Below, one piece after another: positions 2,909 through 29,767 of a DNA stretch of 34,998 bases. Both the position numbers and the translations under genes were made by a program. Source of the DNA: a virus (taxonomy: Duplodnaviria > Heunggongvirae > Uroviricota > Caudoviricetes > Herelleviridae); the IMG/VR virus record IMGVR_UViG_2706795655_000001; one strand, written 5' to 3'. Position 1 is the stretch's first letter; each line of letters begins with the position of its first letter. The notes under the pieces were generated by a model. It saw only the letters and a list, made by a program, of their open reading frames with translations, did not search any database and had not been told where the DNA came from.

Positions 2909-2937
2909 GACACGGGATAACCTCTCGTGTCTTTTTT
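2909..2937 (+). terminator. Intrinsic terminator
   Basis: GACACGGGA-TAACC-TCTCGTGTC, 9-bp stem, then T6. Confidence 0.85.
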
Positions 2938-2950
2938 GTATCTGCAAAAG

Positions 2951-3000
2951 TAACACTTCTTATAACTTTTTAAACTTTTTTCTAACTTTTTATGATTTTG
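2951..3000 (+). repeat. Five phased 10-bp imperfect direct repeats, candidate parC
   Basis: taacacttct/tataactttt/taaacttttt/tctaactttt/tatgattttg, directly upstream of the parM-like gene. Confidence 0.5.
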
Positions 3001-3062
3001 TGGTATCAATTAGGCGAATGCTCCATATGATGTATTAAGAAATGACAAAGGGGGAAAACAAA

Positions 3063-4154
3063 ATGGCAAAGAAATGGCAAGGAACAAACGTAGGATTATC
3101 TGTAGGTGCAGTAGATGATGGGTTCGGAGATGTGAAATGTGACAACAACGGTCACCCATTCTTAATCCCTTCATTCGTAACTAGCTTTAAACCAAAACCA
3201 TCTACAGAGTTTTCAGTGGAAGGTAAGCAGCTAGAATACATCGCTTGTGAGATTGATGACAAGAAATGGGTAGTCGGAGATTACGCTACAAAGCTAGACC
3301 CGGATATTGAATGGACTGGAGGAGAAAATAAACATAATGATAGTAAGTTTCCGATTATTATGAAAACTGTTCTAGGACTCATGAGCAAAGGCACAAATGA
3401 AACCATCTACACACTTATGATGAACCTACCAATCAAGAACGATACACCAGAACGTAGAGAGCAGCTTACACAACTTGTAAAAGGTACACACGAGATGAAA
3501 ATCTCTTACGACGGGAATAACTGGATAGAAAGAACTGTAACAGTCGAAGATGTATGTATAAAGAAACAACCGTTCGGTAGCTTGTGCGACCTAATGCTAG
3601 ATAACAACGGTGAGATTGTAGACCACAACATCGCAAAAGGATTTAACGTATTAGCAGATATCGGAGCAAGAACACTGAATGTTCTGACATTGGATTCATT
3701 AGAAGAGCAACCGGAACTTACTACACATACAAACATGGGGATGTTTAGTAGCTACCTACAAATCGGGAAATACCTAGAGAACCATCTAGGAGCTACAATC
3801 CCGGACGGAAAGCTACCAATGATTATCCAGAACAAAGAAATAAAAGGTATGGACATCACACCAGTAATCAATCAGGCTTACGAAAATCATGCGAATACAA
3901 TCCTTAATACTCTGGACAGAATACTAATTAATAGTTGGGCTTTTGTAGATACACTTATCTTCACTGGTGGAGGCTCTGAACTACTTAAACAATACTTGTC
4001 CGAACGATTCGCTGCTAGAGGAGTTAAAGTAATGTTTCTAGATAGATACGCAAATGTACGTGGTTTAAGGAAGTATGGGACTCGTATGGCTTCGAAAGCT
4101 AAAAAGAGTACGGTTACTATCAAAGTCGGCACACAGCCGTACATCAGCAAGTGA
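3063..4154 (+). CDS. parM: ParM/StbA-family actin-like partition ATPase
   Basis: Actin-fold motifs VDDGFGDVK (phosphate 1), ADIGARTLNV (phosphate 2), FTGGGSELL (adenosine); AAAGGGGG RBS before ATG 3063. Confidence 0.9.
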   Translation: MAKKWQGTNVGLSVGAVDDGFGDVKCDNNGHPFLIPSFVTSFKPKPSTEFSVEGKQLEYIACEIDDKKWVVGDYATKLDPDIEWTGGENKHNDSKFPIIMKTVLGLMSKGTNETIYTLMMNLPIKNDTPERREQLTQLVKGTHEMKISYDGNNWIERTVTVEDVCIKKQPFGSLCDLMLDNNGEIVDHNIAKGFNVLADIGARTLNVLTLDSLEEQPELTTHTNMGMFSSYLQIGKYLENHLGATIPDGKLPMIIQNKEIKGMDITPVINQAYENHANTILNTLDRILINSWAFVDTLIFTGGGSELLKQYLSERFAARGVKVMFLDRYANVRGLRKYGTRMASKAKKSTVTIKVGTQPYISK

Positions 4155-4164
4155 GGTGCCTTAG

Positions 4165-4431
4165 ATGCGTAAATCAGTCTACTTACGAGATAAGATGGAT
4201 GACGACATCCTAGAAGTAGTAAAGCCTCTCCTAAAGAACCATAGCTTTGCTCACGTCATGAGAGAGCTTGCAAGAGATGGAATCAAATACAGGAAAGGCG
4301 GAGGAGGTGTTGTGTCACACAAAATCATACAAAGTATTACACCAGAACAACCAGCTCCAATCCTTGATATCAAATTGAATAAAAAGGAAGCATCTGATAA
4401 CGATATTGCAAGCCGATTAGATAACTTTTGA
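4165..4431 (+). CDS. Ribbon-helix-helix protein, ParR-like adaptor
   Basis: N-terminal strand RKSVYL, two helices (..SFAHVMRELARDGI), flexible tail; directly after parM; GAGGTG RBS. Confidence 0.7.
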   Translation: MRKSVYLRDKMDDDILEVVKPLLKNHSFAHVMRELARDGIKYRKGGGGVVSHKIIQSITPEQPAPILDIKLNKKEASDNDIASRLDNF

Positions 4432-4444
4432 ATCCGTTTTTCCC

Positions 4445-4498
4445 AAATTCCTGTAATTCCGTAATTCCCGGAAAAACGGTAATTCCCTTGAAATTCCC
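4445..4498 (+). repeat. Cluster of five (A/T)AATTCC direct repeats
   Basis: AAATTCC 4445, TGTAATTCC 4452, GTAATTCCC 4461, GGTAATTCCC 4478, GAAATTCCC 4490. Confidence 0.6.
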
Positions 4499-4763
4499 TA
4501 CATTTATAGAGGGTTTATAGCGACTAATTCACTATCCCGTAGTCATGTAAAACTTTAAGAATCTGCTCTAATTCTTCCATACTAATATCTACATTTCTAT
4601 CCTTGTTGATGTCGTGAAGAACTAAATGATTTACTTTCTGCATTTGTCTCTCATACTGAGCTAAAGAATCTGTGAACCAAGACATATAATCATCGTCCTC
4701 TCTTGTTTTATAATCCTATCATTACCAAAATAAAATCATTTATACATGAAGGAGGAAAAAATT

Positions 4764-4952
4764 ATGGGTATCGCTGCTGTTAGTGCTGGAATCGCATTAG
4801 TTTGTACGACTGGATTGGCTTTGTCAACGGTGTTTAAGTTTCTCCATTCATTCGAAATGGAAATAGGAGTGAAGAAAGAGAAACGCAATCGTAGAGATGC
4901 GAACGAAGAACGTTTTGATAACATGGCTAACCGTTCAAGATTAAACAAATAA
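4764..4952 (+). CDS. Small single-TM protein
   Basis: GGAGG RBS before ATG 4764; hydrophobic N-terminus, charged tail. Confidence 0.7.
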   Translation: MGIAAVSAGIALVCTTGLALSTVFKFLHSFEMEIGVKKEKRNRRDANEERFDNMANRSRLNK

Positions 4953-4967
4953 AAGGGGATGTTAACG

Positions 4968-5495
4968 ATGATTATAAATTACGATGCTAGAGGCAAAGAT
5001 GCTTGGGTTGAGTACACACCATTCACGAAGGTTCCAATGCAGGATGAGTCGGTTTTTATGTACCAAAATATAAAGGAGGAGATAATGAGCGCAAAGGGAA
5101 TGCAGAAGCTCAAAAAAATAAAGCAAGCAAAAAAGATAATCAAAATGTCACTATCAATCTTAGGAGCAAGTGCAAGTCTTACAACCAGAACATTTGCAAG
5201 CGGAGTGACGGGAAATACTCCTCTACTCAATCCACTGAATCCGGGAATCATGGTGGAGTACGGACTACAGATAGCATTTATCGCGGTGGGAGTAGCAGTA
5301 GCACTAAGTATAGTTCTATTGGTAATAGCGGGAACACTAAGAATGTTCAGAAAGAGCCACGAAGCGAATGTATGGACGCAAGACATCATAAAGGGGATAA
5401 CGCAAGTACTGATAAGCGTTCCGAGTATCTACATCATTTACCGAGTAGCAAGCTACCTATTCAGAAATTTAAACTTCTTAAGTCTAGGCTTCTAA
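4968..5495 (+). CDS. VirB2/TrbC pilin-like membrane protein (alternative start 5085)
   Basis: Leader ending TTRTFA|S, TM1 (LQIAFIAVGVAVALSIVLLVIAG), basic loop RKSHEANVWTQDIIKG, TM2. RBS before both ATG 4968 and ATG 5085. Confidence 0.55.
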   Translation: MIINYDARGKDAWVEYTPFTKVPMQDESVFMYQNIKEEIMSAKGMQKLKKIKQAKKIIKMSLSILGASASLTTRTFASGVTGNTPLLNPLNPGIMVEYGLQIAFIAVGVAVALSIVLLVIAGTLRMFRKSHEANVWTQDIIKGITQVLISVPSIYIIYRVASYLFRNLNFLSLGF

Positions 5496-6604
5496 AAATT
5501 CTGAAAATTTCCACAGTACCCGCAGCAGTCATTTCTACATTAACTTTTACAACTATGGGAGACACAGCATACGCGGAAACGGTAGATACGTCATCAGTCC
5601 TTGAGAAGAGTACGGGAATCTTATCTGCAATCGTAAAGGGTGGGGTATCAAGTGCATTACCTACTCCAGTACAAGAGATAATAAACTGGTTGGGAGAGTT
5701 TGTGACCATCATCAAGACTATACCTACAAATGTAGCAAAGATGTCCGCAGATTTATTAGCTTGGATATATGAATTATGTACTGGGCTTATCCTACAAACT
5801 CCTTTATTCCTATTTGATAATGAATGGTTTACGACTATGAGTTTAGGGTTTAGTGGCGTGGCGGTAGGGATTGTAGTAGTACTTACGATTATAGAATGCA
5901 TTAAGCGTATGTTATCTGGAGCAAGTAAGAAGATACGACCAATGGAGTTTACAACAATCATGAAGCGTTGGTCTTTAGTAGCTGGTGTCACTTCGGTAAC
6001 GCCATTCTTATTCAAATCAGCTTTTAAAGTATTGAATTTCATCTCTGGCAAACTTACAAGTATGGGTAGCGACATCATGACAGCTAGTGCCTTGACTACT
6101 ACATTTAGTACGATTGATATTATCACATTGTTAGTATTCGATGCGATATTGATTTCTACAGTTATTCCGATGTTATGGACGAATGGAAGAAGGTTTTTCG
6201 ACCTATTGGTATTAGGCGTAGTAGCTCCTGTTGCCCTGAGTTGCTGGGTGTTCGATTCTCACAGACATTTCTTCACACAGTGGTGGTCAAACGTTAAGCA
6301 TCTCTCGTTGGTTCAAGTGTACCACTCCTTGTTTTTACTTATCATAGGTTTGTTTATATTCGGAATCCCTTTTCCAATGACATTTACGGGTACTGCGGTA
6401 AAGCTCTTAGTCGTTATAGGAGGCTTTTCCAGAATGACCTCACCGCCAAAAATAATATCCAGTAAACTTGATAACGGTAAAGGTCTTGATGAGGTTATGA
6501 AAAGTAACGTTAAAGAAACATCTAAGAAATTAATTAAGAATTTCGCTCTCTCTAAAGCTACAGTTCTAAGTCCATTAAAACTTTTCAATAAGATAAAAAA
6601 ATAA
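5372..6604 (+). CDS. VirB6/TrbL-like polytopic membrane protein (true start unclear)
   Basis: About 6-8 hydrophobic segments; GRRFFDLLVLGVVAPVALSCWVF..FFTQWW resembles the R-x-x-x-L-x4-V-x-AP-x-A...W pattern of Gram-positive TrbL/VirB6 proteins; no good RBS/start. Confidence 0.6.
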   Translation: MDARHHKGDNASTDKRSEYLHHLPSSKLPIQKFKLLKSRLLKILKISTVPAAVISTLTFTTMGDTAYAETVDTSSVLEKSTGILSAIVKGGVSSALPTPVQEIINWLGEFVTIIKTIPTNVAKMSADLLAWIYELCTGLILQTPLFLFDNEWFTTMSLGFSGVAVGIVVVLTIIECIKRMLSGASKKIRPMEFTTIMKRWSLVAGVTSVTPFLFKSAFKVLNFISGKLTSMGSDIMTASALTTTFSTIDIITLLVFDAILISTVIPMLWTNGRRFFDLLVLGVVAPVALSCWVFDSHRHFFTQWWSNVKHLSLVQVYHSLFLLIIGLFIFGIPFPMTFTGTAVKLLVVIGGFSRMTSPPKIISSKLDNGKGLDEVMKSNVKETSKKLIKNFALSKATVLSPLKLFNKIKK

Positions 6605-6609
6605 AAGCA

Positions 6610-7335
6610 TCATAAAAGATGCTTCCAAGTTTTACCGTATACAATATCATTGATTACATGAATTGTAACGTCATATCTAGCAGCTAATTCCGCTCTCTTG
6701 AGTGCCTTGTCTTTATAAGTCTTACGTATCTCGATAACCTGTTCTTCATTTAGATGGGAGTGATGCTCACTAAGTTTCTTCTTAGAACCTGTAGAACGTT
6801 TGTTGTTCTCTACGAATCCGTCAACTTTGACATGTGACCATAGCGTTCCAATCTTTATACCAGATATTAAGGAAAAGGATACATTGTACTCTTTAGATAT
6901 ATTAGTTGCGGTTTCGCCATCTCTTAAAAGTTCTTTAATACGGATAACGTCTTTTTCCTTAAGGACACTACTTGCGTTGTCTTCTCCAATCAAACCTTTA
7001 GCTAACCCAGTATCATAGGCATGTTGTGTGTTCTCTGCTGTAGTAGCCCACTCTAGGTTACTAAGCGTGTTATTATCCTTATCACCGTCCTTATGATTAA
7101 CTTCTGGTTTATTCTCTGGGTTTTCGATAAACGCTAAAGCTACTAATCTATGTACTCTGTAATACTTACGTTTTCCTTTATAACGTAGCCCTAGATGATG
7201 ATAACCCTGCTTATTAATATTATGGCTCATCAACTTACCTAACTTGTTATTTATAACATTCCCTAACGTACTTACACTATAATCGTCTCCACACTCAACG
7301 ACATCTTTTAGTGACTTCCAAACTTCTTTCTCCAT
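6610..7335 (-). mobile_element. Free-standing HNH homing endonuclease (NUMOD4 + HNH + two C-terminal HTH repeats)
   Basis: EVWKSL..YSVSTLGNV; VHRLVALAF..VNHKDGDKDNN..NLEW; AAGGAG RBS before ATG 7335. Confidence 0.9.
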
Positions 7336-7368
7336 ATGTATCGCTCCTTTGGTTTTGGGTATATCTTT

Positions 7369-7377
7369 ATTATAACA
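7369..7377 (-). promoter_or_regulatory. Extended -10 sigma-A promoter for HNH gene
   Basis: Minus strand TG-T-TATAAT, ~35 nt upstream of the start codon. Confidence 0.6.
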
Positions 7378-7394
7378 CATTAGGAGGTTTTAAC

Positions 7395-7508
7395 ATGAGT
7401 ATAACAACACTGATTTTACTGAATACAACGATGTTATTGGCGACTGCTGCTGTGAACGCTGTACAGTGTGTAATCATTATGAAGGAGTTGAAGCATCGTG
7501 AAGAGTAA
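7395..7508 (+). CDS. 37-aa single-TM peptide
   Basis: TAGGAGG RBS, ATG 7395, MSITTLILLNTTMLLATAAVNAVQCVII; overlaps start of the FtsK-like gene. Confidence 0.65.
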   Translation: MSITTLILLNTTMLLATAAVNAVQCVIIMKELKHREE

Positions 7509-9759
7509 AGGATACAAGAACATATCGAACTACTTCTCACAGGTTGAAGATGTACCCGGAGCCTTTAAACATATCCTACAGACAGATACCGATGGTGTGT
7601 TCGGATTAGAAGTAGAACTATATAAGGGCGGAAGAAACATAACCGTTGTGACACCGCCCCAGATTCGTTTTGATGAAACGAATATTCTACCTTATCGCTT
7701 AACGTTAGTAGCGCGCCACACAGACGACTTACATGCTTATGAAGGTTATCTATCTAAACCTAGCTTCTTGCCTTTGTACGAGGGGATGAGCGGCTTATTC
7801 TTACGTGAATTACTGGAGATACAAGTAGGAGAAGATGAAGCACTAGAAATCCAGTGGCTCTTCAAAAGATACATTGATAATTGGCTCCTTACTTCTATAG
7901 ATAGGTATAAAAGTTATTTGAGTGGTAATGAGTACCCGGCTGGCTCTAAGATAGGAAGAACATTCCAAGATAAAATCCTACATGCAATCAATAAGTTATC
8001 ATCGTTTGATATGGCTCGAACATATAGTGAGAAAGTGGAACAGAAGATTGTCGGTAAGGTATATAAATTTAAACTAGGGATTACCATTCGTTCTAAGGAG
8101 CCTAAGAGACTGCTGGAGCAGATTGAGTCTATACTACGTAAATACGATTCACATAATACGGTAAGCCTGTACAAGAGGAAGTTAAAGGGCTTAAAAGATG
8201 AATGCGAGGAAAGATTGGTTATGAACGGAGAGAATGTAGTGAGTGATAGTGAAATTGTATCCTTATTCGGTGGGACAGTAGTAGCTCCCCAAGAAGTTGA
8301 ATCCGTTCAATCTGCTACTACTGAACCGAATAAAGTTAGAACACCTAGAAAGGATATCGGAGGTCTAGTCTCGTTGTTGCCTACATATCCAAGAGAAGAA
8401 GTGAAAGTGGATGCGAACATTGTGAGCTACCTAGCCGAAGCTATGAAGCGTGTAGGTCTGATTCCAACAGCGAGACTAGCGAATAGTACTGTTACAGCGG
8501 GTGCGCGGTTGACTGTTATTCAATGTGATATACCTAAGAAGAAGAACTTAAGTCATCTTATTTCAAAGGCTTCCGATATCCAAGCAGCACTAGGAGTCCC
8601 TTCGCTTAGTATAGAACAAGGTGAGGAACCTGATACTGCCAAATTTACCCTTCCTAATGAAGAAGCAGCTATCATCAGTTTACGGGAACTTATAGAGAGT
8701 CCATCGTTCCAAGAATACGCGAGTAATCACCCATTGCCTTTCATTGTAGGATTAGATGAAGTGGATACGCCAATCTATCTAGACTTGACAAAGCTCGTAC
8801 ATCTTATGATTGCTGGTACGACTGGTTCTGGTAAATCTGTATTTATGAATACGCTCATTATTAGTCTAATGGCTACGAACACACCAGAGATGTTACGATT
8901 CGTTATGATTGACCCTAAGATAGTAGAACTGGCTCAATATGAGGGGATGTCTCACGTAGATAAGATAGTAACGGATATGGAGAAAGCAGGTGCAGCTCTA
9001 AATGAGTTGGTTGTAGAGATGGAGAAGAGATACGAAACATTTAAAGATGCAGGAGTGAAAAGTATTAACATCTATAATGAAGTAGCAGACTGTAAAATGC
9101 CGTATATCGTATGTGTGATAGATGAATACGCAGACTTACACGATACAAACCCACATGTAGAAGAATATGTAACTCGACTAGGACAGAAAGCTCGTGCCGC
9201 TGGCATCCATTTAGTTATCGCTACACAAAGACCAGATGCAAAGGTAATCAGCGGACGTATCAAAGCAAATGTACAGAACGCAATCAGTTTCAATTTAAAT
9301 AGTAATGTGGATTACAAAACGGTATTCGGCAAAGGTATAGGCAATACAACGCTGTTAGGTCGTGGAGACGGTATCATGAGGATAGTAGCACACCCTAAAG
9401 AGTTCCAGCGGTTCCAGAGCGCTATTGTATCTCCTAATGAAATAGAAGAAGGTAAAGTGTATCAGAAGATTAGGGATTACTTTGGCGAGGTTAACCCGGA
9501 GGATATTAATATGGATGACTTTTACCCAGAAGCAGCGACAGAGGAGCCACTATTGAAACTTAAAAAAATTATAGCTAGTACGAGGGAGACAAAGGTAGGT
9601 AGGCTTAGAGAGATTATGGGAATCAAAGCAGAGGCATTGACAGAACTCATGGGACAGTTAGTAGAAGAAGGTTGGCTCATCAAACATGCTTCTAAGACAA
9701 AAGGATATGAATTAATCATTCCAGAGGAGATGTTATCAGAGTATAAAGGAGATTGGTAA
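7498..9759 (+). CDS. FtsK/SpoIIIE-family DNA translocase ATPase
   Basis: Alpha-domain-like segment, Walker A GTTGSGKS, Walker B IVCVIDEYADL, ARAAGIHLVIATQRP, LLGRGDG, C-terminal winged helix; no TM segments seen. Confidence 0.95.
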   Translation: MKSKGYKNISNYFSQVEDVPGAFKHILQTDTDGVFGLEVELYKGGRNITVVTPPQIRFDETNILPYRLTLVARHTDDLHAYEGYLSKPSFLPLYEGMSGLFLRELLEIQVGEDEALEIQWLFKRYIDNWLLTSIDRYKSYLSGNEYPAGSKIGRTFQDKILHAINKLSSFDMARTYSEKVEQKIVGKVYKFKLGITIRSKEPKRLLEQIESILRKYDSHNTVSLYKRKLKGLKDECEERLVMNGENVVSDSEIVSLFGGTVVAPQEVESVQSATTEPNKVRTPRKDIGGLVSLLPTYPREEVKVDANIVSYLAEAMKRVGLIPTARLANSTVTAGARLTVIQCDIPKKKNLSHLISKASDIQAALGVPSLSIEQGEEPDTAKFTLPNEEAAIISLRELIESPSFQEYASNHPLPFIVGLDEVDTPIYLDLTKLVHLMIAGTTGSGKSVFMNTLIISLMATNTPEMLRFVMIDPKIVELAQYEGMSHVDKIVTDMEKAGAALNELVVEMEKRYETFKDAGVKSINIYNEVADCKMPYIVCVIDEYADLHDTNPHVEEYVTRLGQKARAAGIHLVIATQRPDAKVISGRIKANVQNAISFNLNSNVDYKTVFGKGIGNTTLLGRGDGIMRIVAHPKEFQRFQSAIVSPNEIEEGKVYQKIRDYFGEVNPEDINMDDFYPEAATEEPLLKLKKIIASTRETKVGRLREIMGIKAEALTELMGQLVEEGWLIKHASKTKGYELIIPEEMLSEYKGDW

Positions 9760-9787
9760 AATATTTTAAAAAATGGAATAAAAAGTG

Positions 9788-9816
9788 TTGACCGTTAGTA
9801 AACATGATAGTAAGAT
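9788..9816 (+). promoter_or_regulatory. Sigma-A early promoter
   Basis: TTGACC-17-TAAGAT. Confidence 0.7.
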
Positions 9817-10178: not shown

Positions 10179-10859
10179 ATGAAAAACACAACTAAAAAAT
10201 TCGCAATTGGTGGCGCTTTGGTAGCATCTTTATTAGTAGGAGCTATCGGGGGAGCGGGCGCAAGCAGTTATTTAAATGACAATACACAGGACTTAGTTAA
10301 ATTCAAAGCATGGAGCAATGAATTAACTGACAAAGTTGTGTCTAAAACACAAGCCAACAAAGAACTACAAGCTTCTATTGCTAACCTAGAAAAAGCAAAC
10401 AAAGAGTTGCAGGATGCAAACCAACAAAAAGATGCGGAAATTGCAAAGTTAAATAATGAAATCTCTATCTTCGTAGCACAAACACAAGCGCTACAGAAAG
10501 AAATCGAGAATAAAAACGCTACAATTGAAGACCTTACTAAGAAGGTAACGGCTCTAGAGTCACAGGTTAAAGGTCTTCAAGATAAAATCAATGGTTTAGA
10601 GAAAACAAATGCAGAACAACAGGCTACTATTAAAAACCTACAAGATACTTTAACTGCTACGCAACAAGCATTAAAGAACACACAAGTCATCTTAGATGCA
10701 ACAAAGAAAGAGTTAGATAAAGCGAACGCATCAGGTAAAGAGAAAGATAAAGAAATCGCAGAACTTAAAGCGAAGTTAAAAGAGTACCATGATGAAGTGG
10801 CTACACTTAAACCTTTACAGCAACAACAGGAAAAGAAAGTTAAAGATTCTGAGAAGTAA
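10179..10859 (+). CDS. Membrane-anchored or secreted long coiled-coil protein
   Basis: N-terminal signal/TM, then ~190 aa of heptad-rich K/E/Q/A/L; GGGGAGG RBS. Confidence 0.8.
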   Translation: MKNTTKKFAIGGALVASLLVGAIGGAGASSYLNDNTQDLVKFKAWSNELTDKVVSKTQANKELQASIANLEKANKELQDANQQKDAEIAKLNNEISIFVAQTQALQKEIENKNATIEDLTKKVTALESQVKGLQDKINGLEKTNAEQQATIKNLQDTLTATQQALKNTQVILDATKKELDKANASGKEKDKEIAELKAKLKEYHDEVATLKPLQQQQEKKVKDSEK

Positions 10860-23214: not shown

Positions 23215-23511
23215 ATGACTAAACAATTTAAATCAATAGGCGGGTTAAAAAACAGCGTAAAGGCTACGTTAAAGCGTGAGGGCTTTGAACTAAGTAATGA
23301 GGGTAACAAGTGGCGTTATGGTAGTGGTATTCTGGTATCATCTGATAGAGTTGATACAATTACAATAGAGGATATAGGCTTGACAGGTAGTAGGAAAGGT
23401 AAACACCGTCCGGAGGTTCTAGAGGCTTTAGAAGAGTACGGGGCGTTTGTATTTAATGAAAATTGTTATGGCTCTATTGTTGAGGTAATCAGAATAAAAT
23501 TTAATAAATAG
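23215..23511 (+). CDS. Early hypothetical protein
   Basis: AAGGGAG RBS. Confidence 0.7.
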   Translation: MTKQFKSIGGLKNSVKATLKREGFELSNEGNKWRYGSGILVSSDRVDTITIEDIGLTGSRKGKHRPEVLEALEEYGAFVFNENCYGSIVEVIRIKFNK

Positions 23512-23574
23512 TTGTTGACTTTTAGAAAACACGCATGTTACAATAAGGGTAACTTAATAAGGGAGCTGGTACAT

Positions 23575-23745
23575 ATGAAAGCGATAGATAAATCACTTGC
23601 TTGTATTAACCTAAATACAGTAGAAAGACGGTTAAAAGACTTAATTAGTATTGTTGAAAACGGCGGTACTATTAGCACAGATTTAACGTTACAATACATG
23701 TTAGAAGATGTTTTAAAAGTAAAAAGAGTATTAGAGGAGGACTAA
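23575..23745 (+). CDS. Early hypothetical protein
   Basis: Cassette RBS before ATG 23575. Confidence 0.7.
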   Translation: MKAIDKSLACINLNTVERRLKDLISIVENGGTISTDLTLQYMLEDVLKVKRVLEED

Positions 23746-23750
23746 AATAT

Positions 23751-23843
23751 ATGTCATTCAGAGGCTCATTAAAAGTATTGGTTATTGTTGGTTTCTTGTT
23801 TGCAGTCGGAAAGGGTATATCATACGCAATCGTACACTTTTAA
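23751..23843 (+). CDS. 30-aa single-TM peptide (not in ORF track)
   Basis: GAGGAGG RBS; MSFRGSLKVLVIVGFLFAVGKGISYAIVHF. Confidence 0.55.
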   Translation: MSFRGSLKVLVIVGFLFAVGKGISYAIVHF

Positions 23844-23912
23844 AAATAGTTGTTGACTTTTAGTAAATGATAGTTTAAAATGAAATTAACTTAAATAAAG
23901 GGAGCTGTTACA

Positions 23913-24068
23913 ATGGAAAGATACGATGTATATATGACAGAGGTTAAATTTTTCCCAGTTAGAACTAAAATGAGAATTAAGTTTAAAATAGTTGAATCTC
24001 CTTTTAAAAATGGAAACTCTTTATGGTTCGACATGATGAAAAGATTACCGATATTAGTTAAAAAATAG
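23913..24068 (+). CDS. 51-aa early protein (not in ORF track)
   Basis: Cassette promoter + RBS; stop inside next cassette. Confidence 0.7.
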   Translation: MERYDVYMTEVKFFPVRTKMRIKFKIVESPFKNGNSLWFDMMKRLPILVKK

Positions 24069-24131
24069 TTGTTGACTTTTAGAAAACAAGATGATAAAAT
24101 GAAAGTAACTTAAATAAAGGGAGATGTTACA

Positions 24132-24320
24132 ATGTATTATAAAATTAATGTAAGTTTAGATAACTGGCACTTTTTCGCAACTAGTGACCACAGTATAACA
24201 AGCAAAGTACAACTAAACAAGGTTTTACCTATTTTCAAAGAGAAGTTTCCGAAAAGTGAGGGCTATTCTATTAGTGTTATGCTACTTAAAACAGTTGGAG
24301 AAGAAATTGAGATAGATTAA
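24132..24320 (+). CDS. Early hypothetical protein
   Basis: Cassette promoter + RBS. Confidence 0.75.
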   Translation: MYYKINVSLDNWHFFATSDHSITSKVQLNKVLPIFKEKFPKSEGYSISVMLLKTVGEEIEID

Positions 24321-24391
24321 AAAAAAAGTTGTTGACTTTTAGTAAATAAGATGATAAGATGAAATTAACTTAAAAAAGGGAGCTGTTAATT

Positions 24392-24583
24392 ATGAATAAA
24401 GAAAACATCGGTAAAATTCAAGGTCTGGTATTACAGTGTAAAGAGGCGGGGTTATCTTTAGATAGTGAAAACGTGAAAAAAGCTATTGCGTGGCATTCGA
24501 GAGTATTTGATATACCTGTGGAGGTCATCAAGGAAACAATGCAAGAAATGTGGAGTAAAACAAGAGCTAAAAAAGGTTACTAA
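24392..24583 (+). CDS. Early hypothetical protein
   Basis: Cassette promoter + RBS. Confidence 0.75.
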   Translation: MNKENIGKIQGLVLQCKEAGLSLDSENVKKAIAWHSRVFDIPVEVIKETMQEMWSKTRAKKGY

Positions 24584-24662
24584 AAATAGTTGTTGACTTT
24601 TAGAAAACAAACGTGATACAATGATTACAGAAATAAAAAACATATGAAAAGGTGGAATTTAA

Positions 24663-24875
24663 ATGAACTATACAAAATTTTTAGAAGGTAAAAAAATGCA
24701 CATGGAAATCATGAAAAAGTATGATAGATTGGAGGAATTCATGAGCGCGCTTGATACTTGTTTCGATTTATACGAACTAGGGTATTGCTCACAGGAAGAA
24801 CAACGTATCTGGGAAGAAATGAGCGAGATGTCTGCACTAGAAATATATGGTTTGTGGATTGAATCTAAAAAATAA
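24663..24875 (+). CDS. Early acidic protein
   Basis: Cassette promoter + AAAGGTGG RBS. Confidence 0.75.
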   Translation: MNYTKFLEGKKMHMEIMKKYDRLEEFMSALDTCFDLYELGYCSQEEQRIWEEMSEMSALEIYGLWIESKK

Positions 24876-24955
24876 AAATAGTTGTTGACTTTTAGGAAAG
24901 ATACATGCTACAATGATTACAGAAACAAAAAACATATAAAAAGGTGGAATATAAA

Positions 24956-25255
24956 ATGGAAATCAGAGAAATTAATTGGAATGTAGAATTTAAAAAGGAA
25001 ATGACAGAGCTTGAAATTTACGGGATTGAAAGAGTAATCGATACTTATTATAATGATGAAGACTTTGATTTCAATACAGAGGCTTTAGGGCTGGCTTATA
25101 CATCATCTAGTGACTATGCAATGTATAACGTTTGTAACGGTGAATTTACTTATGAAGACATAGTTATAAGTCATTTCGCGGTAACTACACAAGGTCACCT
25201 TGTAATGATTTGTCATGATAACGAAGAATACGAAATAAGATTCGAACTCGTGTGA
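24956..25255 (+). CDS. Early highly acidic protein
   Basis: Cassette promoter + AAAGGTGG RBS before ATG 24956. Confidence 0.75.
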   Translation: MEIREINWNVEFKKEMTELEIYGIERVIDTYYNDEDFDFNTEALGLAYTSSSDYAMYNVCNGEFTYEDIVISHFAVTTQGHLVMICHDNEEYEIRFELV

Positions 25256-25399
25256 GCGAGTATAAACAGGCTTTAGGCTCACAGCGTCGCGGGGTTTATC
25301 CCCGCGGGTAGCAACTAAAATAAATTTTAAATAGTTGTTGACTTTCAGTAAATAAAGTATTAAAATGAAGGTAACTTAAAAAAAGGGAGATGTTTTACA

Positions 25400-26281
25400 A
25401 TGACAAAACAATTAGAATTAACACAATACGACACTTTAGAGGCTTTAGAAGGGGATATCGATGTATTAGAGGCGTTTTATGAGTATGAGGGTTCAACTTA
25501 TGTTTGCGACGCTATTCAAGAAATTGCTGATAAATTTATCCCAATCTATACACATGAATTATGGAAAAACGCTTATGACATGAAAGAATATATAGAAGAG
25601 GCGATGTCACAAGGCTTATGTGAAACGCCACGCGGGGAACAACCAGACCTAGACAAGATTTTCCAAGCAGGTTACTATCAGTATTATACACAAGTGTTAT
25701 ATAATAACGAAGCAGAACTATACTATAATTATATTGCTGTAATCGTTAATAAATGGTTGGAAGGGTTGAACCATGACCAACTAGAAAAGATTGATATTAA
25801 CGAACTAGATGAGCGTATAGAAGAGGAAAGAGCCGATATTGATAATAATAGTTATATGGAAGATATGGAAGACATCGCAAAACGTATTATTGCAGAATGT
25901 AAAGGAAAAGTAAATAAGGATGCATCATGGGAAAATTATGGAGATGTAAACGCGTTGGAGCATGGGGGCGTATTCATTAAAAAAGATATGGATTACCCGG
26001 GCGACAAATGTTATTATATCGTTAAACTTATCAATATGACCTCTGCATGCGGTGAAGATGGTTTTACAATAGAAGAGGGGTATGTAGATTTAAAAGACGA
26101 CTGGATAGACTGGGAAGCCGTTGAAAGTACTTGTGATATTGCGGACAGTGACGAAATTAAAGTGGTCGATGTATTCGGGTATTACGGGGTTAACGAGTTT
26201 AACGGGGAATCCACTATATACGATAATGAAAGCGAAGTGTTAGAGCATTTAGCGAATATTGGAATTTGTATCGAAAATTAA
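25400..26281 (+). CDS. Ocr (T7 gp0.3)-like DNA-mimic domain fused to a second acidic domain
   Basis: DAIQEIADKFIPIY...GL...DLDKIFQAGYYQYYTQVL aligns with remembered Ocr DAIHMAADNAVPHY...GL...DVIRILQARIYEQLTIDL; about 69 D/E vs 21 K/R (hand count); own early promoter. Confidence 0.7.
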   Translation: MTKQLELTQYDTLEALEGDIDVLEAFYEYEGSTYVCDAIQEIADKFIPIYTHELWKNAYDMKEYIEEAMSQGLCETPRGEQPDLDKIFQAGYYQYYTQVLYNNEAELYYNYIAVIVNKWLEGLNHDQLEKIDINELDERIEEERADIDNNSYMEDMEDIAKRIIAECKGKVNKDASWENYGDVNALEHGGVFIKKDMDYPGDKCYYIVKLINMTSACGEDGFTIEEGYVDLKDDWIDWEAVESTCDIADSDEIKVVDVFGYYGVNEFNGESTIYDNESEVLEHLANIGICIEN

Positions 26282-26342
26282 TTGTTGACTTTTAGAAAAC
26301 ACTCATGTTACAATAAGGATAACTTAATAAGGGGGTTACATC

Positions 26343-26600
26343 ATGCGAGATATTGAATATATTCTAGATGACTTGGATAAGTGGGCGCATATTCTCACAG
26401 GGCTGCACATTGAAGTTATTAAAGATATTACACCAGAGGAAAAAGAACATTTTGAGAACGAAATAGAGTTCGTGAGAGAGAAAATAAGAGAATTGCAAAA
26501 TGAATTAGAAGAGGCGGAAAAAGAAGAGGCTAAAAGGTTTAATACAGCAAATGAGCGCGCTATGTCAGAGGCGGGACATAATGAAAGGGACTTCCTTTAA
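26343..26600 (+). CDS. Early acidic coiled-coil protein
   Basis: Cassette promoter + AAGGGGG RBS. Confidence 0.75.
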   Translation: MRDIEYILDDLDKWAHILTGLHIEVIKDITPEEKEHFENEIEFVREKIRELQNELEEAEKEEAKRFNTANERAMSEAGHNERDFL

Positions 26601-26634
26601 AAAGGAGGTTCCCACGCTAAAGGGGGCGGGTTAC

Positions 26635-26817
26635 ATGGCATTATCGAAAAGAGAACGTATGCAGGAAATGGAAAGAGAACTAAGAAACTTACAAATAGTA
26701 AAAGATAAACTTATCGAAAAGTATGTAAATGAATTAGGCGTATCGGAAGAAAAGGCGCTCGAAATGTGGCAAGTAATGTATGATATCACTAAAAAGGTAT
26801 GGAGTGAAGAGGACTAA
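26635..26817 (+). CDS. Early hypothetical protein
   Basis: AAGGGGG RBS before ATG 26635. Confidence 0.7.
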   Translation: MALSKRERMQEMERELRNLQIVKDKLIEKYVNELGVSEEKALEMWQVMYDITKKVWSEED

Positions 26818-26886
26818 AAATAGTTGTTGACTTTTAGTAAAAGATAGTTTAAAATGAAAGTAACTTAAAAAAGGGAGCTGTTACAT

Positions 26887-27129
26887 ATGTTAACATTAGA
26901 AGAGAAAAAAGAAATTTCAAAGGGTTTTGGTTTAAAAGTGAATGAAGTTGAGGAAATGATAACTAAAGGTGAAATAGACATGTATAAGTCATATTCAATG
27001 TTTTTCTACGATATGCACGAAAATAAAAGTAGAGATGATTTAATAAGTTTGTTGGAAAGTGGAGAAACTGCCCTAGATAATTTAGAATACTGCACATTAT
27101 CAAGCGGAAAAGTAGCGTATATTTTCTAA
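26887..27129 (+). CDS. Early hypothetical protein
   Basis: Cassette promoter + RBS. Confidence 0.75.
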   Translation: MLTLEEKKEISKGFGLKVNEVEEMITKGEIDMYKSYSMFFYDMHENKSRDDLISLLESGETALDNLEYCTLSSGKVAYIF

Positions 27130-27199
27130 AAAAAGTTGTTGACTTTTAGTAAATAATAGTTTAAAATGAAATTAACTTAAAAAAGGGAGTTGTCTTACA

Positions 27200-27355
27200 A
27201 TGACAAAATTAGAAACGTTAATTAATGGCGGTACGGTTACTATTGAAAAGTTTAGAACGCTGGATAATTTTCTAGATGAATGTGAGCACAATGATTTAGA
27301 GGTTGAAGTGGGAAGAGATGAAGATAATTTTTACACTGTTACACTAAAGAAATAA
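27200..27355 (+). CDS. 51-aa acidic early protein (not in ORF track)
   Basis: Cassette promoter + RBS; TAA 27353-27355 runs into next cassette. Confidence 0.7.
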   Translation: MTKLETLINGGTVTIEKFRTLDNFLDECEHNDLEVEVGRDEDNFYTVTLKK

Positions 27356-27423
27356 ATAGTTGTTGACTTTTAGTAAATAATAGTTTAAAATGAAATTAAC
27401 TTAAAAAAGGGAGCTGTTTTATA

Positions 27424-27765
27424 ATGACAAATTATAACTACTATTCACAAAATGGATTAAGAGGCGAATTACATGTAATCAGTGAAAATAAATTTATTTA
27501 TAAAGTTGAGTCATACCGACAATTAGAGAGTTCGGAAATAGGTTTCTTATATAATCTTGAATTGGTGGCGGGGTATGATTACATTAACCCGGACTATAGC
27601 AACGTTCAAGGGTATGTATCTAAAGAAAACTTTGTAGAAAATATCCACTTGGAGCAAATAACGTTTTACCCTATGTCAGAGACACTGGCAGAGGCACTAG
27701 ACGACAACGGTTATAAGGTCATTAATATTAACGATTACAAGATACACCAATTTAAAGGGTGTTAG
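27424..27765 (+). CDS. Early hypothetical protein
   Basis: Cassette promoter + RBS. Confidence 0.75.
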   Translation: MTNYNYYSQNGLRGELHVISENKFIYKVESYRQLESSEIGFLYNLELVAGYDYINPDYSNVQGYVSKENFVENIHLEQITFYPMSETLAEALDDNGYKVININDYKIHQFKGC

Positions 27766-27790
27766 GCGCTCATATAGAGCGTTTAACTCT
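27764..27790 (+). terminator. Possible weak terminator hairpin
   Basis: AGGCGCTC-ATATA-GAGCGTTT with short T tail. Confidence 0.4.
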
Positions 27791-27875
27791 TCCTAATATA
27801 AATAGTATATAATAAATGTTAGAACGTTGTAAGAGGTTGTGAGGAGTCTTAAAATACATGATAGAGGTGGTATAA

Positions 27876-28052
27876 ATGAAAATAAGTGATGATGTCCGTT
27901 ATTTGCAAAAAGAATTACATGATATAATTGATAAAATACATAAAGAAACAATAAAACCGTTTTACTTACAAGACAAATATTTAATCGATTGCTTATATGT
28001 CCAAAAGTGGGGACTAGAAGACCTAATAAAAGATTTAATGGAAAGTTGTTGA
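27876..28052 (+). CDS. 58-aa early protein (not in ORF track)
   Basis: AGAGGTGG RBS; TGA stop lies inside the next -35 box. Confidence 0.6.
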   Translation: MKISDDVRYLQKELHDIIDKIHKETIKPFYLQDKYLIDCLYVQKWGLEDLIKDLMESC

Positions 28053-28109
28053 CTTTTAGAAAACAATGGTTTAAAATGAAGGTAACTTAAAAAAAGGGAG
28101 CTGTTATAT

Positions 28110-28436
28110 ATGTTAGTTATCAAAGTGAAAAAGAAAGTAGATGCAACGGAATTTGTTAATAATTTTAAACTATTGTTTAATACGTTACAAAGTGGTCATC
28201 ATGTATTTACATTCTATAATACAGTTGAAAAAGAGTGGGTGTACTTATTACGCCACGCGGACGGAACTTTTAAAACTATCAGTGTACACCAAACAAGAGA
28301 TAAGGACGCGAACACTATAGAAGAAATATCGGATATTGAATCATTTGTTTGGAAAAATAGAAAGTATATTAATAATAACATTAGTGATGATGTAACTATA
28401 CACCAATTTTGTAGTTCTGATTTAACTTATTACTAA
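28110..28436 (+). CDS. Early hypothetical protein
   Basis: Cassette promoter + RBS. Confidence 0.75.
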   Translation: MLVIKVKKKVDATEFVNNFKLLFNTLQSGHHVFTFYNTVEKEWVYLLRHADGTFKTISVHQTRDKDANTIEEISDIESFVWKNRKYINNNISDDVTIHQFCSSDLTYY

Positions 28437-28516
28437 AAATAGTTGTTGACTTTTAGCAAAAGATAGTTTAAAATGAAATTAAGTTAAACAAAACAAATTA
28501 AAGGGAGCTGTTACAT

Positions 28517-28711
28517 ATGAATAAATTCGCCGATATTTCTAAAATTGATACATGGACTACGGATGAATTAAAGAAAGCCGTTAAATACTATGAAGTGCAG
28601 TTAAAAGACCCGCGCACGGATGACAATGAAAGACGTTGGTTAAACCGCGCTGTTACTAAATGTGAATCGTTATTGAATCCCCCGTCCGAGTGGGAAAATC
28701 TTTTTAAATAG
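28517..28711 (+). CDS. Early hypothetical protein
   Basis: Cassette promoter + RBS. Confidence 0.75.
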   Translation: MNKFADISKIDTWTTDELKKAVKYYEVQLKDPRTDDNERRWLNRAVTKCESLLNPPSEWENLFK

Positions 28712-28785
28712 TTGTTGACTTTTAGTAAAATAAGGTTTAAAATGAAAGTAAGTTAAACAAAACAAATTAAAGGGAGCTGTTAATT

Positions 28786-29316
28786 ATGACAGATACATTA
28801 AAAGCGGTTGAAATTGGTACTCAAGTATTAGCTAGTGAACTAGTCGGAAAGAGTGGCTTTAATATCGCTCATGATACAACTTATATCGATAACGTGAATA
28901 GTGTCAAATGGTTTAGTGCAACTAAAACAGCGGTGGTTATTACTTATGATGGTTACCAAACAGTGACAGTACCCGCAAATGAGGTTTATGTATGGGTTAA
29001 AGAAAATGCTATCAGTTACGAGGATATGACATACAACTTTTTAGGGCGTAACTGGAAAGAGAAATACAACTATACAGAGGATAACAGCACATATGCAAGC
29101 TATGACAAGAAAATAAAAGCACTTATAAAAGAGAATGCAGGGAAGATATTATATCATGAATGTAATAGCGCGTGGGAACATATTGATAGTGATGTTAAAA
29201 AAGCGCTTGGAATCTTTAGAGGCGTTAAAACTGTAAAAGACTATTCAGTGTCAGAACTAGCAAAAATATACGTAACATCACAACGCGAACTATTTAGACT
29301 AGTTGACCCAGAATAA
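28786..29316 (+). CDS. Early hypothetical protein
   Basis: Cassette promoter + RBS. Confidence 0.8.
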   Translation: MTDTLKAVEIGTQVLASELVGKSGFNIAHDTTYIDNVNSVKWFSATKTAVVITYDGYQTVTVPANEVYVWVKENAISYEDMTYNFLGRNWKEKYNYTEDNSTYASYDKKIKALIKENAGKILYHECNSAWEHIDSDVKKALGIFRGVKTVKDYSVSELAKIYVTSQRELFRLVDPE

Positions 29317-29422
29317 AAAATAGTTGTTGACTTTTAGAAAACAAGATGATAAGATTAAATTAAGTTAATAAGGAGGCTTGCTTATACAGGAGCCTCTAAT
29401 AAATAAAAGGGAGCTGTTATAT

Positions 29423-29704
29423 ATGGAAAGATTAACTTTTGAACAATGGAAAGATGTATTTAGAAACGTAAAGGAAATAAACAATGATTTAAAACATGAG
29501 GGATTCGAGGAGGAGCCGTTGGAGGTTGTCTGGTTGGAAAGTACGAATGAATATGTAATAGCAAGTGGTTGCGAGGTTATAGAAGATGAGTTCAAAACAG
29601 AACACGAAGCACAAACAAGACTTGACAACATGGAACACGAGTATAACACATATATACAGGAAGAGGAAAGAAAGTATAAGAGCTTTCTAGAAAATAATAA
29701 ATAG
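29423..29704 (+). CDS. Early acidic protein
   Basis: AAAAGGGAG RBS before ATG 29423. Confidence 0.75.
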   Translation: MERLTFEQWKDVFRNVKEINNDLKHEGFEEEPLEVVWLESTNEYVIASGCEVIEDEFKTEHEAQTRLDNMEHEYNTYIQEEERKYKSFLENNK

Positions 29705-29767
29705 CTGTTGACTTTTAGTAAAAGATAGTTTAAAATGAAAGTAACTTAAAAAAGGGAGCTGTTATAC

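Follow-up and report, generated by a model that had tools for sequence, protein, structure and literature searches.

A ParM-type partition set joined to a T4SS-like membrane cassette in Bastille-type Bacillus phages: a candidate module for positioning and translocating DNA

A 6.8-kb block of genes at positions 2940–9760 of IMG/VR record IMGVR_UViG_2706795655_000001 (34,998 nucleotides, here called the window) joins a ParM-type DNA segregation set to genes for an FtsK-type ATPase and for membrane proteins that resemble parts of type IV secretion systems (T4SSs). The window is DNA of a Bastillevirinae (Herelleviridae) myophage of the Bacillus cereus group; such genomes have about 160 kb. In megablast searches, the 6.8-kb stretch matched 29 Bacillus phage genomes, most closely BillyBob, Juglone and BigBertha (93–94%), followed by B4, B5S and Spock (86%) and by Bastille and Goe5 (78%). 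We see about an even chance that the block is a plasmid-derived module that positions and translocates DNA, with a ParM set serving a VirB4-less, T4SS-like inner-membrane assembly that contains a pump for double-stranded DNA (dsDNA). Its first part would be a type II (ParM) segregation set made of an actin-like ATPase, an 88-residue DNA-binding adaptor and an iteron centromere. The second part would be a minimal T4SS-like inner-membrane assembly composed of a 62-residue transmembrane (TM) protein, a VirB2-like protein, a VirB6/TrbL-like protein, a 37-residue TM peptide and a chimeric ATPase. New here is the N-terminal domain (NTD) of this ATPase, which in our structural model has the fold of the VirB4 NTD.

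The ATPase and the neighbouring membrane proteins

The ATPase is a soluble protein of 753 residues encoded on the plus strand at positions 7498–9759, and it matched PF01580 with an E value of 8e-50. It is laid out as a VirB4-NTD-like domain (residues 1–260), a linker, an FtsK alpha/beta motor (residues ~347–660) and a C-terminal winged helix-turn-helix (wHTH)-like tail. Its sequence shows the motifs Walker A, Walker B and TQRP. The motor was closest to true FtsK (structure 2ius, 1e-55; NCBIfam FtsK NF007615, 2e-60, far under the equivalog cut-off of that model) and scored lower against EssC/EccC, TcpA (4e-19) and TraB. Hydropathy analysis found neither a hydrophobic segment nor a multi-TM anchor over the 753 residues, and it also confirmed the two single-TM peptides that the original prediction had placed beside a TM-less FtsK. 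Full-length alignment to plasmid and chromosomal homologues gave 30–31% identity. PADLOC reported similarity of the ATPase to the defence ATPases SspH and HerA, confined to the P-loop motor; as no other gene of the block was matched, we rejected a known defence system.

The N-terminal 345 residues were modelled with 24 homologues, giving a predicted local distance difference test (pLDDT) score of 75, good for residues 1–260. In the model, this region is an alpha/beta domain that VIA-align superposed on the NTD of R388 TrwK/VirB4 with Z scores of 11.1–12.5 and a root-mean-square deviation of 3.4–4.3 Å over 209–216 residues, whereas the next unrelated fold reached a Z score of 6.5. Matches in the AlphaFold database (E values 1e-12 to 1e-8) and in the ESM Atlas (TM scores 0.57–0.59 over ~245 residues) were the N-terminal parts of T4SS-type ATPases, annotated as TraD/type IV coupling protein (T4CP), DUF87/HerA, PrgI-family or DUF8128. 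From the model we hence assign a VirB4-type docking domain, which makes the protein a predicted chimera of a VirB4 NTD and an FtsK motor. This modifies the view that the system has no VirB4. At the level of families the absence of VirB4, VirD4 and relaxase was confirmed and even extended to G001, a complete 165,238-bp relative on which our whole-genome checks were made. There, PF03135 was unmatched, PF12846 matched only the P-loop of the FtsK gene, and the VirD4/TraG and relaxase families PF02534, PF13814 and PF03432 had no match anywhere; the VirB4 model TIGR00929 gave 22 bits, against a cut-off of 643. Since the NTD has the VirB4 N-terminal fold, however, the absent VirB4 would be partly built into the FtsK motor.

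The cassette starts with a 62-residue single-TM protein (positions 4764–4952, plus strand) that matched DUF7394 (PF24126, 3.7e-11) and phrog_3796 and carries a basic cytoplasmic tail. Plasmid and metagenome loci encode proteins of the same size at the same position that share an aromatic [FY]-x-[HN]-[ST]-[FY] motif. The next gene (positions 4968–5495, plus strand; phrog_3528) codes for a protein of 175 residues with the topology of a VirB2/TrbC-like pilin, consisting of a cytoplasmic head, a signal-like segment and two TM helices joined via a basic loop. It is homologous to proteins of 203–208 residues in the equivalent position on plasmids (1e-17). No direct Pfam match of the window protein to pilin families was obtained. 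Its family profile retrieved relatives of ~98 residues (E values 1e-19 to 6e-5) that do match Pfam T4SS_pilin, one above the cut-off (29.8 bits versus 26.6) and several just below, and that match TrbC/VirB2 sub-threshold, from 9e-5 (also 1.3e-4) to 1e-3. Remote homology alone supports the VirB2-like identity that had been put forward in the original prediction.

More lines of evidence converge on the polytopic membrane protein that follows (plus strand, putative start at 5372, or ATG 5555, to 6604; phrog_3750, 7e-170). Its family comprises 124 representative clusters in a library of 1.8 billion proteins. Neither the window protein nor any of ten distant family members scanned singly gave a direct Pfam match; among 91 aligned members, Pfam TrbL_4 was found on 12 (best 9e-10) and TrbL/VirB6 on two. 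An AlphaFold2 model of the protein (pLDDT 84) had R388 TrwI/VirB6 as its top PDB matches, with a Foldseek probability of 1.0 (E value 8e-3) and VIA-align Z scores of 9.3–10.2 over 226–235 residues, the next unrelated structure reaching 7.5. Many AlphaFold database clusters matched by the model are named TrbL/VirB6 or T4SS protein, with E values from 2e-7. Each of these lines is moderate alone; combined, they support the predicted VirB6/TrbL-like assignment, so that the membrane genes of the block do display T4SS-like folds or families. We further noted a structural relative in BFVD (G3MBL9, E value 1e-8), gp153 of Bacillus phage G, a phage that encodes a ParM homologue elsewhere in its genome.

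The start of the VirB6-like gene was compared across 13 loci. With ATG 5372 as start, the gene would overlap the pilin-like gene by 124 nt. Conservation of the encoded protein extends to a signal-like segment ahead of ATG 5555, which means that the gene starts upstream of 5507; no start with a good ribosome-binding site was found ahead of this segment. At least eight of the 13 loci offer an in-frame ATG or GTG at a distance of 121 nt ahead of the pilin stop, where a conserved Trp codon is read in the pilin frame; in two further loci a comparable start lies more upstream. In several bacterial loci the VirB6-like gene has an ordinary start, located 19 or 61 nt ahead of the pilin stop. Only the closest relatives contain two −1 slippery heptamers in phase (X_XXY_YYZ, positions 5465–5474). 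As the VirB6 frame is offset by +2 from the hydrophobic-coding frame, its third codon positions are mostly T and stops are impossible. We also considered pilin–VirB6 fusions, which are suggested by 'long' VirB6-like calls of 520–540 residues, and dismissed them as a gene-calling artefact, because the N-terminal extensions are not homologous to the pilin-like protein.

The last small membrane gene encodes a single-TM peptide of 37 residues (positions 7395–7508, plus strand; phrog_4802, 3e-21) and has a strong ribosome-binding site. Its stop overlaps the start of the ATPase gene, which suggests that the two are translationally coupled. Counterparts of 39–53 residues exist in phage 0305phi8-36 and in pBFI_1. 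One may speculate that either this peptide or the 62-residue protein takes the role of VirB3.

Partition genes, carriers and borders of the block

The partition genes lie upstream of the cassette. The first one, at positions 3063–4154 of the plus strand, encodes an actin-like ATPase of 363 residues that matched Pfam ALP_N (8e-17), MreB-like_C (2.5e-22) and phrog_691 (8e-114). We place its start at 3063, behind a GGGGG ribosome-binding site; the longest open reading frame begins at ATG 3042. The protein aligns over its full length with the solved ParM structures 3js6, 6ixw and 6izr from pSK41 and Clostridium plasmids, its phosphate and adenosine motifs are legible, and its matches to NCBIfam ParM and PRTRC_D both stayed under the cut-offs of these models. 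At the sequence level, its membership of the ParM family is solid.

Ten nucleotides downstream starts the gene of the 88-residue putative adaptor (positions 4165–4431, plus strand; phrog_3536, 2e-37). No match of this protein was obtained in Pfam, NCBIfam or the PDB, and its family profile found nothing meaningful in the PDB. By eye, it shows an N-terminal strand–helix–helix pattern like that of ribbon-helix-helix (RHH) proteins, and its C-terminal tail is acidic and conserved. An alignment was obtained with ORF206 of 0305phi8-36, which itself lies directly 3' of the ParM gene of that phage, and an Atlas feature search gave a Plasmid_stab_B lead with a score of only 0.85. We hence treat it as a candidate adaptor and not as a proven ParR, on the basis of its position, its co-conservation with ParM and the RHH-like pattern. 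The type II partition set of the original prediction thus stands for ParM, by Pfam, PHROG and PDB matches, while its ParR stays a candidate.

A centromere (parC) had been expected upstream of parM, where our repeat search found just three copies of AACTTTTT (positions 2964–2991, plus strand, spacing 9–11 bp). Goe5 has only two such copies and Grass none, which leaves these repeats as the weaker of two candidate centromeres. They also overlap a weak promoter-like site at 2969–2996. A shared ATGTATTAA element upstream of parM was considered as a promoter and rejected, as it matches no recognisable promoter family. A denser iteron cluster lies downstream of the adaptor gene instead, with five copies of WAATTCC in 53 bp (positions 4445–4497, plus strand) out of 19 in the whole window, and clusters of like kind are present in BillyBob, Goe5 and Grass. 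Iteron clusters also adjoin the ParM-like gene of a Sporosarcina locus (L013) and the TubZ gene of a metagenome contig (L007), which favours a centromere reading of the WAATTCC cluster. Judged from its sequence context, this cluster is most likely the parC site; alternatively, it could be an address similar to the clt of TraB, that is, a recognition site for the wHTH of the ATPase.

Searches of 50,697 phage records with tblastn found the VirB6-like protein in 147, the ATPase N-domain in 145, the pilin-like protein in 144 and ParM in 158 of them. The first three of these sets are all Bastille-type, and their members infect B. cereus, B. subtilis, B. megaterium, B. pumilus and relatives. The same gene order (ParM, 88-residue protein, pilin-like, VirB6-like, 39-residue peptide, ATPase) recurs in the unrelated jumbo phage 0305phi8-36. 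There, the N-domain of the ATPase is homologous (hhalign 89.7%, E value 1.9e-6), its motor looks T4CP-like with a weak TraG-D_C match, and a Replic_Relax-like gene follows; with this arrangement, the module of 0305phi8-36 (ORF200–207) is nearer to a conjugative layout than the Bastille version. Two records with the whole module, MN364664.1 'Xanthomonas phage Xoo-sp15' and MN940411.1 'Phage f2b1 (Staphylococcus aureus)', are 157–161-kb genomes of Bastille type, and their host labels look implausible.

Elsewhere, a core cassette of a ~70-residue TM protein, a pilin-like protein, a VirB6-like protein and a full-length homologue of the ATPase is found on plasmids of 120–360 kb from Bacillus and allied genera, on metagenome contigs, and in Metabacillus, Sporosarcina and Bacillus genomes. 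In Sporosarcina and Metabacillus it is part of a larger set with a ParM-like gene, a small protein, iterons, an M23 peptidase and a helix-turn-helix (HTH) gene, and one contig has TubZ instead of ParM beside it. M23-type peptidases lie within the module in Grass, L007 and L013. A narrower alignment of the VirB6-like family yielded five genome loci; two of these five carrier genomes have no VirB4-type ATPase, and the cassette hence stands alone. A sample of 400 genomes of the phylum added only two weak matches. Every plasmid carrier was typed as non-mobilizable by MOB-suite. Genes for small acid-soluble spore proteins (SASPs) lie 0.5–2.5 kb from the cassette in two independent elements (L008:7288-7497 and L016:11447-11647), and the 'Arthrobacter citreus NEB 577' plasmid, with such a gene beside the cassette, thus probably belongs to a spore-former.

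The ratio of nonsynonymous to synonymous substitution rates (dN/dS), calculated against Goe5, was 0.04–0.13 for all seven phage genes (parM 0.086, the 88-residue adaptor 0.067, the 62-residue protein 0.065, the 37-residue peptide 0.041), which rules out a decaying plasmid remnant. These ratios point to purifying selection on the module in all Bastille-type Bacillus phages. Together with the closely similar numbers of phage records, the gene order in 0305phi8-36 and the core on plasmids and chromosomes, the genes of the block are evidently conserved as a group.

The block is bordered as the original prediction had described. On its left, an intrinsic-terminator-like hairpin with a T-run (positions 2909–2937, plus strand; hairpin 2909–2931, 9-bp stem with 5 GC pairs) marks the end of the upstream transcription unit, and in Grass a terminator is annotated at the equivalent position. 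On its right, a sigma-A-like promoter, identified by sequence match as TTGACC-17-TAAGAT (positions 9788–9816, plus strand), starts the next transcription unit. Also in line with the original prediction, the strong TTGACT-17-TAAAAT promoter family of the 23.5–29.7-kb region has no member within the block. That part of the window (23500–29750) contains ~15 strong TTGACT-17/18-TA[AC]AAT promoters preceding short genes, which is typical of an early host-takeover region.

The block is not wholly co-oriented, as had been stated, because two of its genes lie on the minus strand. One of them (positions 4524–4685) is divergent from the membrane-gene operon and encodes a conserved protein of 53 residues (phrog_5065, 4e-35, full length) with a weak RelB-like match (0.019). 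It is annotated in BillyBob and Goe5 and was also found in Grass; in the plasmid and chromosomal copies an HTH gene takes its place, and it may be a small regulator of the cassette. The other (positions 6610–7380), between the VirB6-like gene and that of the 37-residue peptide, encodes an HNH homing endonuclease by its family matches (NUMOD4, HNH_3 and HTH). This site is polymorphic: BigBertha, Goe5 and Grass have no insertion there, and BillyBob has another HNH gene, of smaller size; the gene is thus a variable insertion outside the system. Just downstream of the block, at positions 10179–10859, lies the gene of a membrane-anchored coiled-coil protein of 226 residues, which is labelled 'tail needle' or 'Smc-like' in relatives. 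It is conserved in close phages and absent from the plasmid copies of the cassette.

Proposed function and competing explanations

How the components would work together, including docking, DNA substrate, direction and destination of transport, we infer as follows. ParM filaments would move adaptor-bound phage genomes. A hexamer of the ATPase, which has no membrane anchor of its own, would hence use its VirB4-like domain to dock on the VirB6-like protein and the small TM proteins. The docked motor could then pump duplex phage DNA through or at the membrane, and with dsDNA as the substrate a relaxase would not be needed, as in Streptomyces TraB. The membrane in question would most likely be a division or sporulation septum, with DNA being delivered to the sister cell or to the forespore while the phage is in a carrier or pseudolysogenic state. 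The minimal Gram-positive parts list of a T4SS and its recurrent coupling to filament-forming partition genes, sometimes with a wall hydrolase, favour DNA translocation. All identified carriers are endospore-forming Bacillaceae, which together with the two loci containing SASP genes hints at sporulation.

Regarding the carrier state, secondary sources on the Bastillevirinae phages Bp8p-C and Bp8p-T report an influence of the ParM-like protein on unstable lysogeny and describe plasmid-prophage behaviour of Bp8p-C (PMC6669507, PMC8026635, PMC11526630). The module thus probably acts in a carrier state and not in a purely lytic cycle, and to call the host of the module simply a lytic phage, as in the original prediction, was too strong.

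Several observations speak against a translocating module. The VirB2-like link is mostly sub-threshold, a Z score of 10 as obtained for VirB6 is within the range that helical bundles reach by chance, Pfam did not detect an FtsK gamma domain (PF09397) in the ATPase, and its C-terminal wHTH was called on weak hits only, of the C-terminal 93 residues to wHTH regulators. Regular-expression scans of the block for sigma-F, -G, -E and -K promoters and for 0A (Spo0A) boxes found none, and no peptidoglycan hydrolase is present in this phage's own copy of the module. Furthermore, SPO1, a phage without the cassette, is still entrapped in spores and forms virospores (PMC12991052).

Possibly no DNA crosses a membrane at all. 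The block might encode a membrane-tethered DNA organiser, in which ParM positions genomes and the motor clears, resolves or orients concatemers as SftA or FtsK do at septa. FtsK paralogues without TM segments that act at the septum do exist, SftA being one, and the gene of one relative is annotated as sftA; the block is also devoid of early promoters. In prophage CGP3, moreover, the actin-like protein AlpC supports replication of the viral DNA (PMC4446434). We nevertheless regard an organiser as unlikely, as it leaves unexplained why the motor is constantly linked to pilin-like and VirB6-like proteins and to a VirB4-type docking domain, and why several copies include an M23 peptidase. The M23 wall hydrolase inside the module of Grass, L007 and L013 would fit a mating channel to a non-sister neighbour, through which phage or plasmid dsDNA is exported without virions as by Streptomyces TraB. 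The VirB2-, VirB6- and VirB4-NTD-like parts would suit such conjugation-like transfer, as would the T4CP-like ATPase and Replic_Relax-like gene that are paired with the cassette of 0305phi8-36, and megaplasmid carriers were proposed to be self-transmissible on account of their FtsK-like gene (PMC6199540). Against this, the copy of the present phage includes no adhesin, VirB8- or VirB10-like scaffold or wall hydrolase, the plasmid carriers are all non-mobilizable by MOB-suite, and the NCBIfam TraB model NF041214 gave 51 bits with the ATPase at a cut-off of 800, so that we consider a mating channel improbable.

Even less probable is a module that acts on incoming DNA, either by drawing in the long genome of the phage itself once it has been injected or by blocking superinfecting or conjugating DNA at the membrane. 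A membrane-associated DNA motor with PADLOC similarity to SspH and HerA would be in agreement with this; however, the similarity is restricted to the P-loop motor and the other genes have no PADLOC match, the linkage to partition genes would be unexplained, and the block lies outside the early, strongly promoted class, contrary to a role in genome entry. Least of all do we expect a type VII-like protein secretion device, even though EssC and EccC are FtsK-family ATPases, their NCBIfam models matched with 1e-34 to 1e-22, and the NTD is also similar to a chain of the ESX-3 translocon (Z score 8.1) and to EccE-named models. The protein has a single ATPase domain that matches true FtsK best (1e-55 to 2e-60) and a wHTH-like tail, its neighbours are DNA-partition genes, and the partners WXG100, EssA, EssB and EsaA are missing.

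The translocating module, which we prefer, allows a bolder and unlikely extension. Bastille-type phages, related megaplasmids and jumbo phages might possess a working minimal dsDNA secretion machine, in which VirB2-, VirB3- and VirB6-like parts and a chimeric motor, fed by actin or tubulin filaments, enable capsid-free crossing of a septum or cell boundary. Spread or spore entry would then be distinct from infection, and the machine might link FtsK pumps to the ATPases of T4SSs in evolution.

In the literature, the ATPase gene is known as the 'FtsK/SpoIIIE homologue' signature of Bastille-like phages (pham 473, PHROG 3551), described as sporulation-related and located near a 'plasmid segregation protein' (PMC4528723, PMC3853046, PMC3853049). 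Genome papers list 'SpoIIIE' and 'ParM' genes singly and call their role unknown (PMC3853046, PMC3853049, PMC3601020, PMC4528723), and the FtsK-like gene of megaplasmid pBtic360 was read as a hint of self-transfer (PMC6199540). In the searchable literature we found no account of the membrane partners, the VirB4-like domain or the cassette shared with plasmids and chromosomes. The phage 'SpoIIIE', so far treated as an isolated curiosity in searchable papers, would here act as the motor in a conserved multi-protein assembly at the membrane, of which three parts are of T4SS type and which is common to phages, plasmids and chromosomal elements of spore-forming Bacillaceae. If this assembly moves DNA, it would provide phage genomes with a virion-independent route, with bearing on virospores, pseudolysogeny and spread in cell chains. 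It would likewise represent a relaxase-free, VirB4-less type of conjugation in Firmicutes and a naturally occurring chimera of two lineages, FtsK and VirB4, within one ATPase superfamily. The system is testable in the B. subtilis phages Grass, Goe3 and phiNIT1, and it is of relevance to the biocontrol of the B. cereus group by Bastille-type phages.

Relation to known secretion, translocation and partition systems

Compared with the T4SS of R388 (TrwI/VirB6, TrwK/VirB4, TrwM/VirB3, TrwL/VirB2), the module likewise contains a VirB6/TrbL-like protein and a protein of VirB2/TrbC topology. Also shared are small TM peptides encoded beside the ATPase gene, the predicted VirB4-NTD fold of the ATPase and, in some copies, an M23 wall hydrolase. 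In contrast to a T4SS, the module has no VirB4-family motor, VirD4, relaxase or VirB8-, VirB9- and VirB10-like parts, and it is encoded by virulent or pseudolysogenic phages. From the FtsK-type motor and the wHTH-like tail it follows that its predicted substrate is dsDNA, which is also unlike a T4SS.

With FtsK, SpoIIIE and SftA the ATPase shares the alpha/beta motor (1e-55) with intact P-loop motifs and, with SftA in particular, the absence of a TM anchor. Its N-terminus, in contrast, is of the VirB4 type according to the model, with neither four TM helices nor the SftA head, a gamma domain was undetected by Pfam, and T4SS-like membrane genes always accompany the gene. The conjugation motors TraB of Streptomyces and TcpA of Clostridium pCW3 are likewise FtsK-family ATPases, which serve DNA transfer by a mobile element, and TraB moves dsDNA without a relaxase by reading 8-bp repeats via its wHTH. 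Unlike the module ATPase, however, TraB and TcpA have TM segments of their own, the match to TcpA (6o1w) reached only 4e-19, and TraB has no VirB2- or VirB6-like partners.

The partition genes resemble ParMRC of R1 and pSK41, AlpAC of CGP3 and the system of Bp8p-C and Bp8p-T, in that the gene of an actin-like ATPase has a small candidate adaptor gene and short iterons downstream of it. They differ from ParMRC in the place of the best iteron cluster, which is found 3' of the adaptor gene, in an adaptor without a match to ParR families, and in the physical coupling of the set to the putative translocation cassette. Membership among the T4SSs hence fails on the defining VirB4 motor and membership among the FtsK/SpoIIIE translocases on the membrane anchor, and the module is best described as combining features of both.

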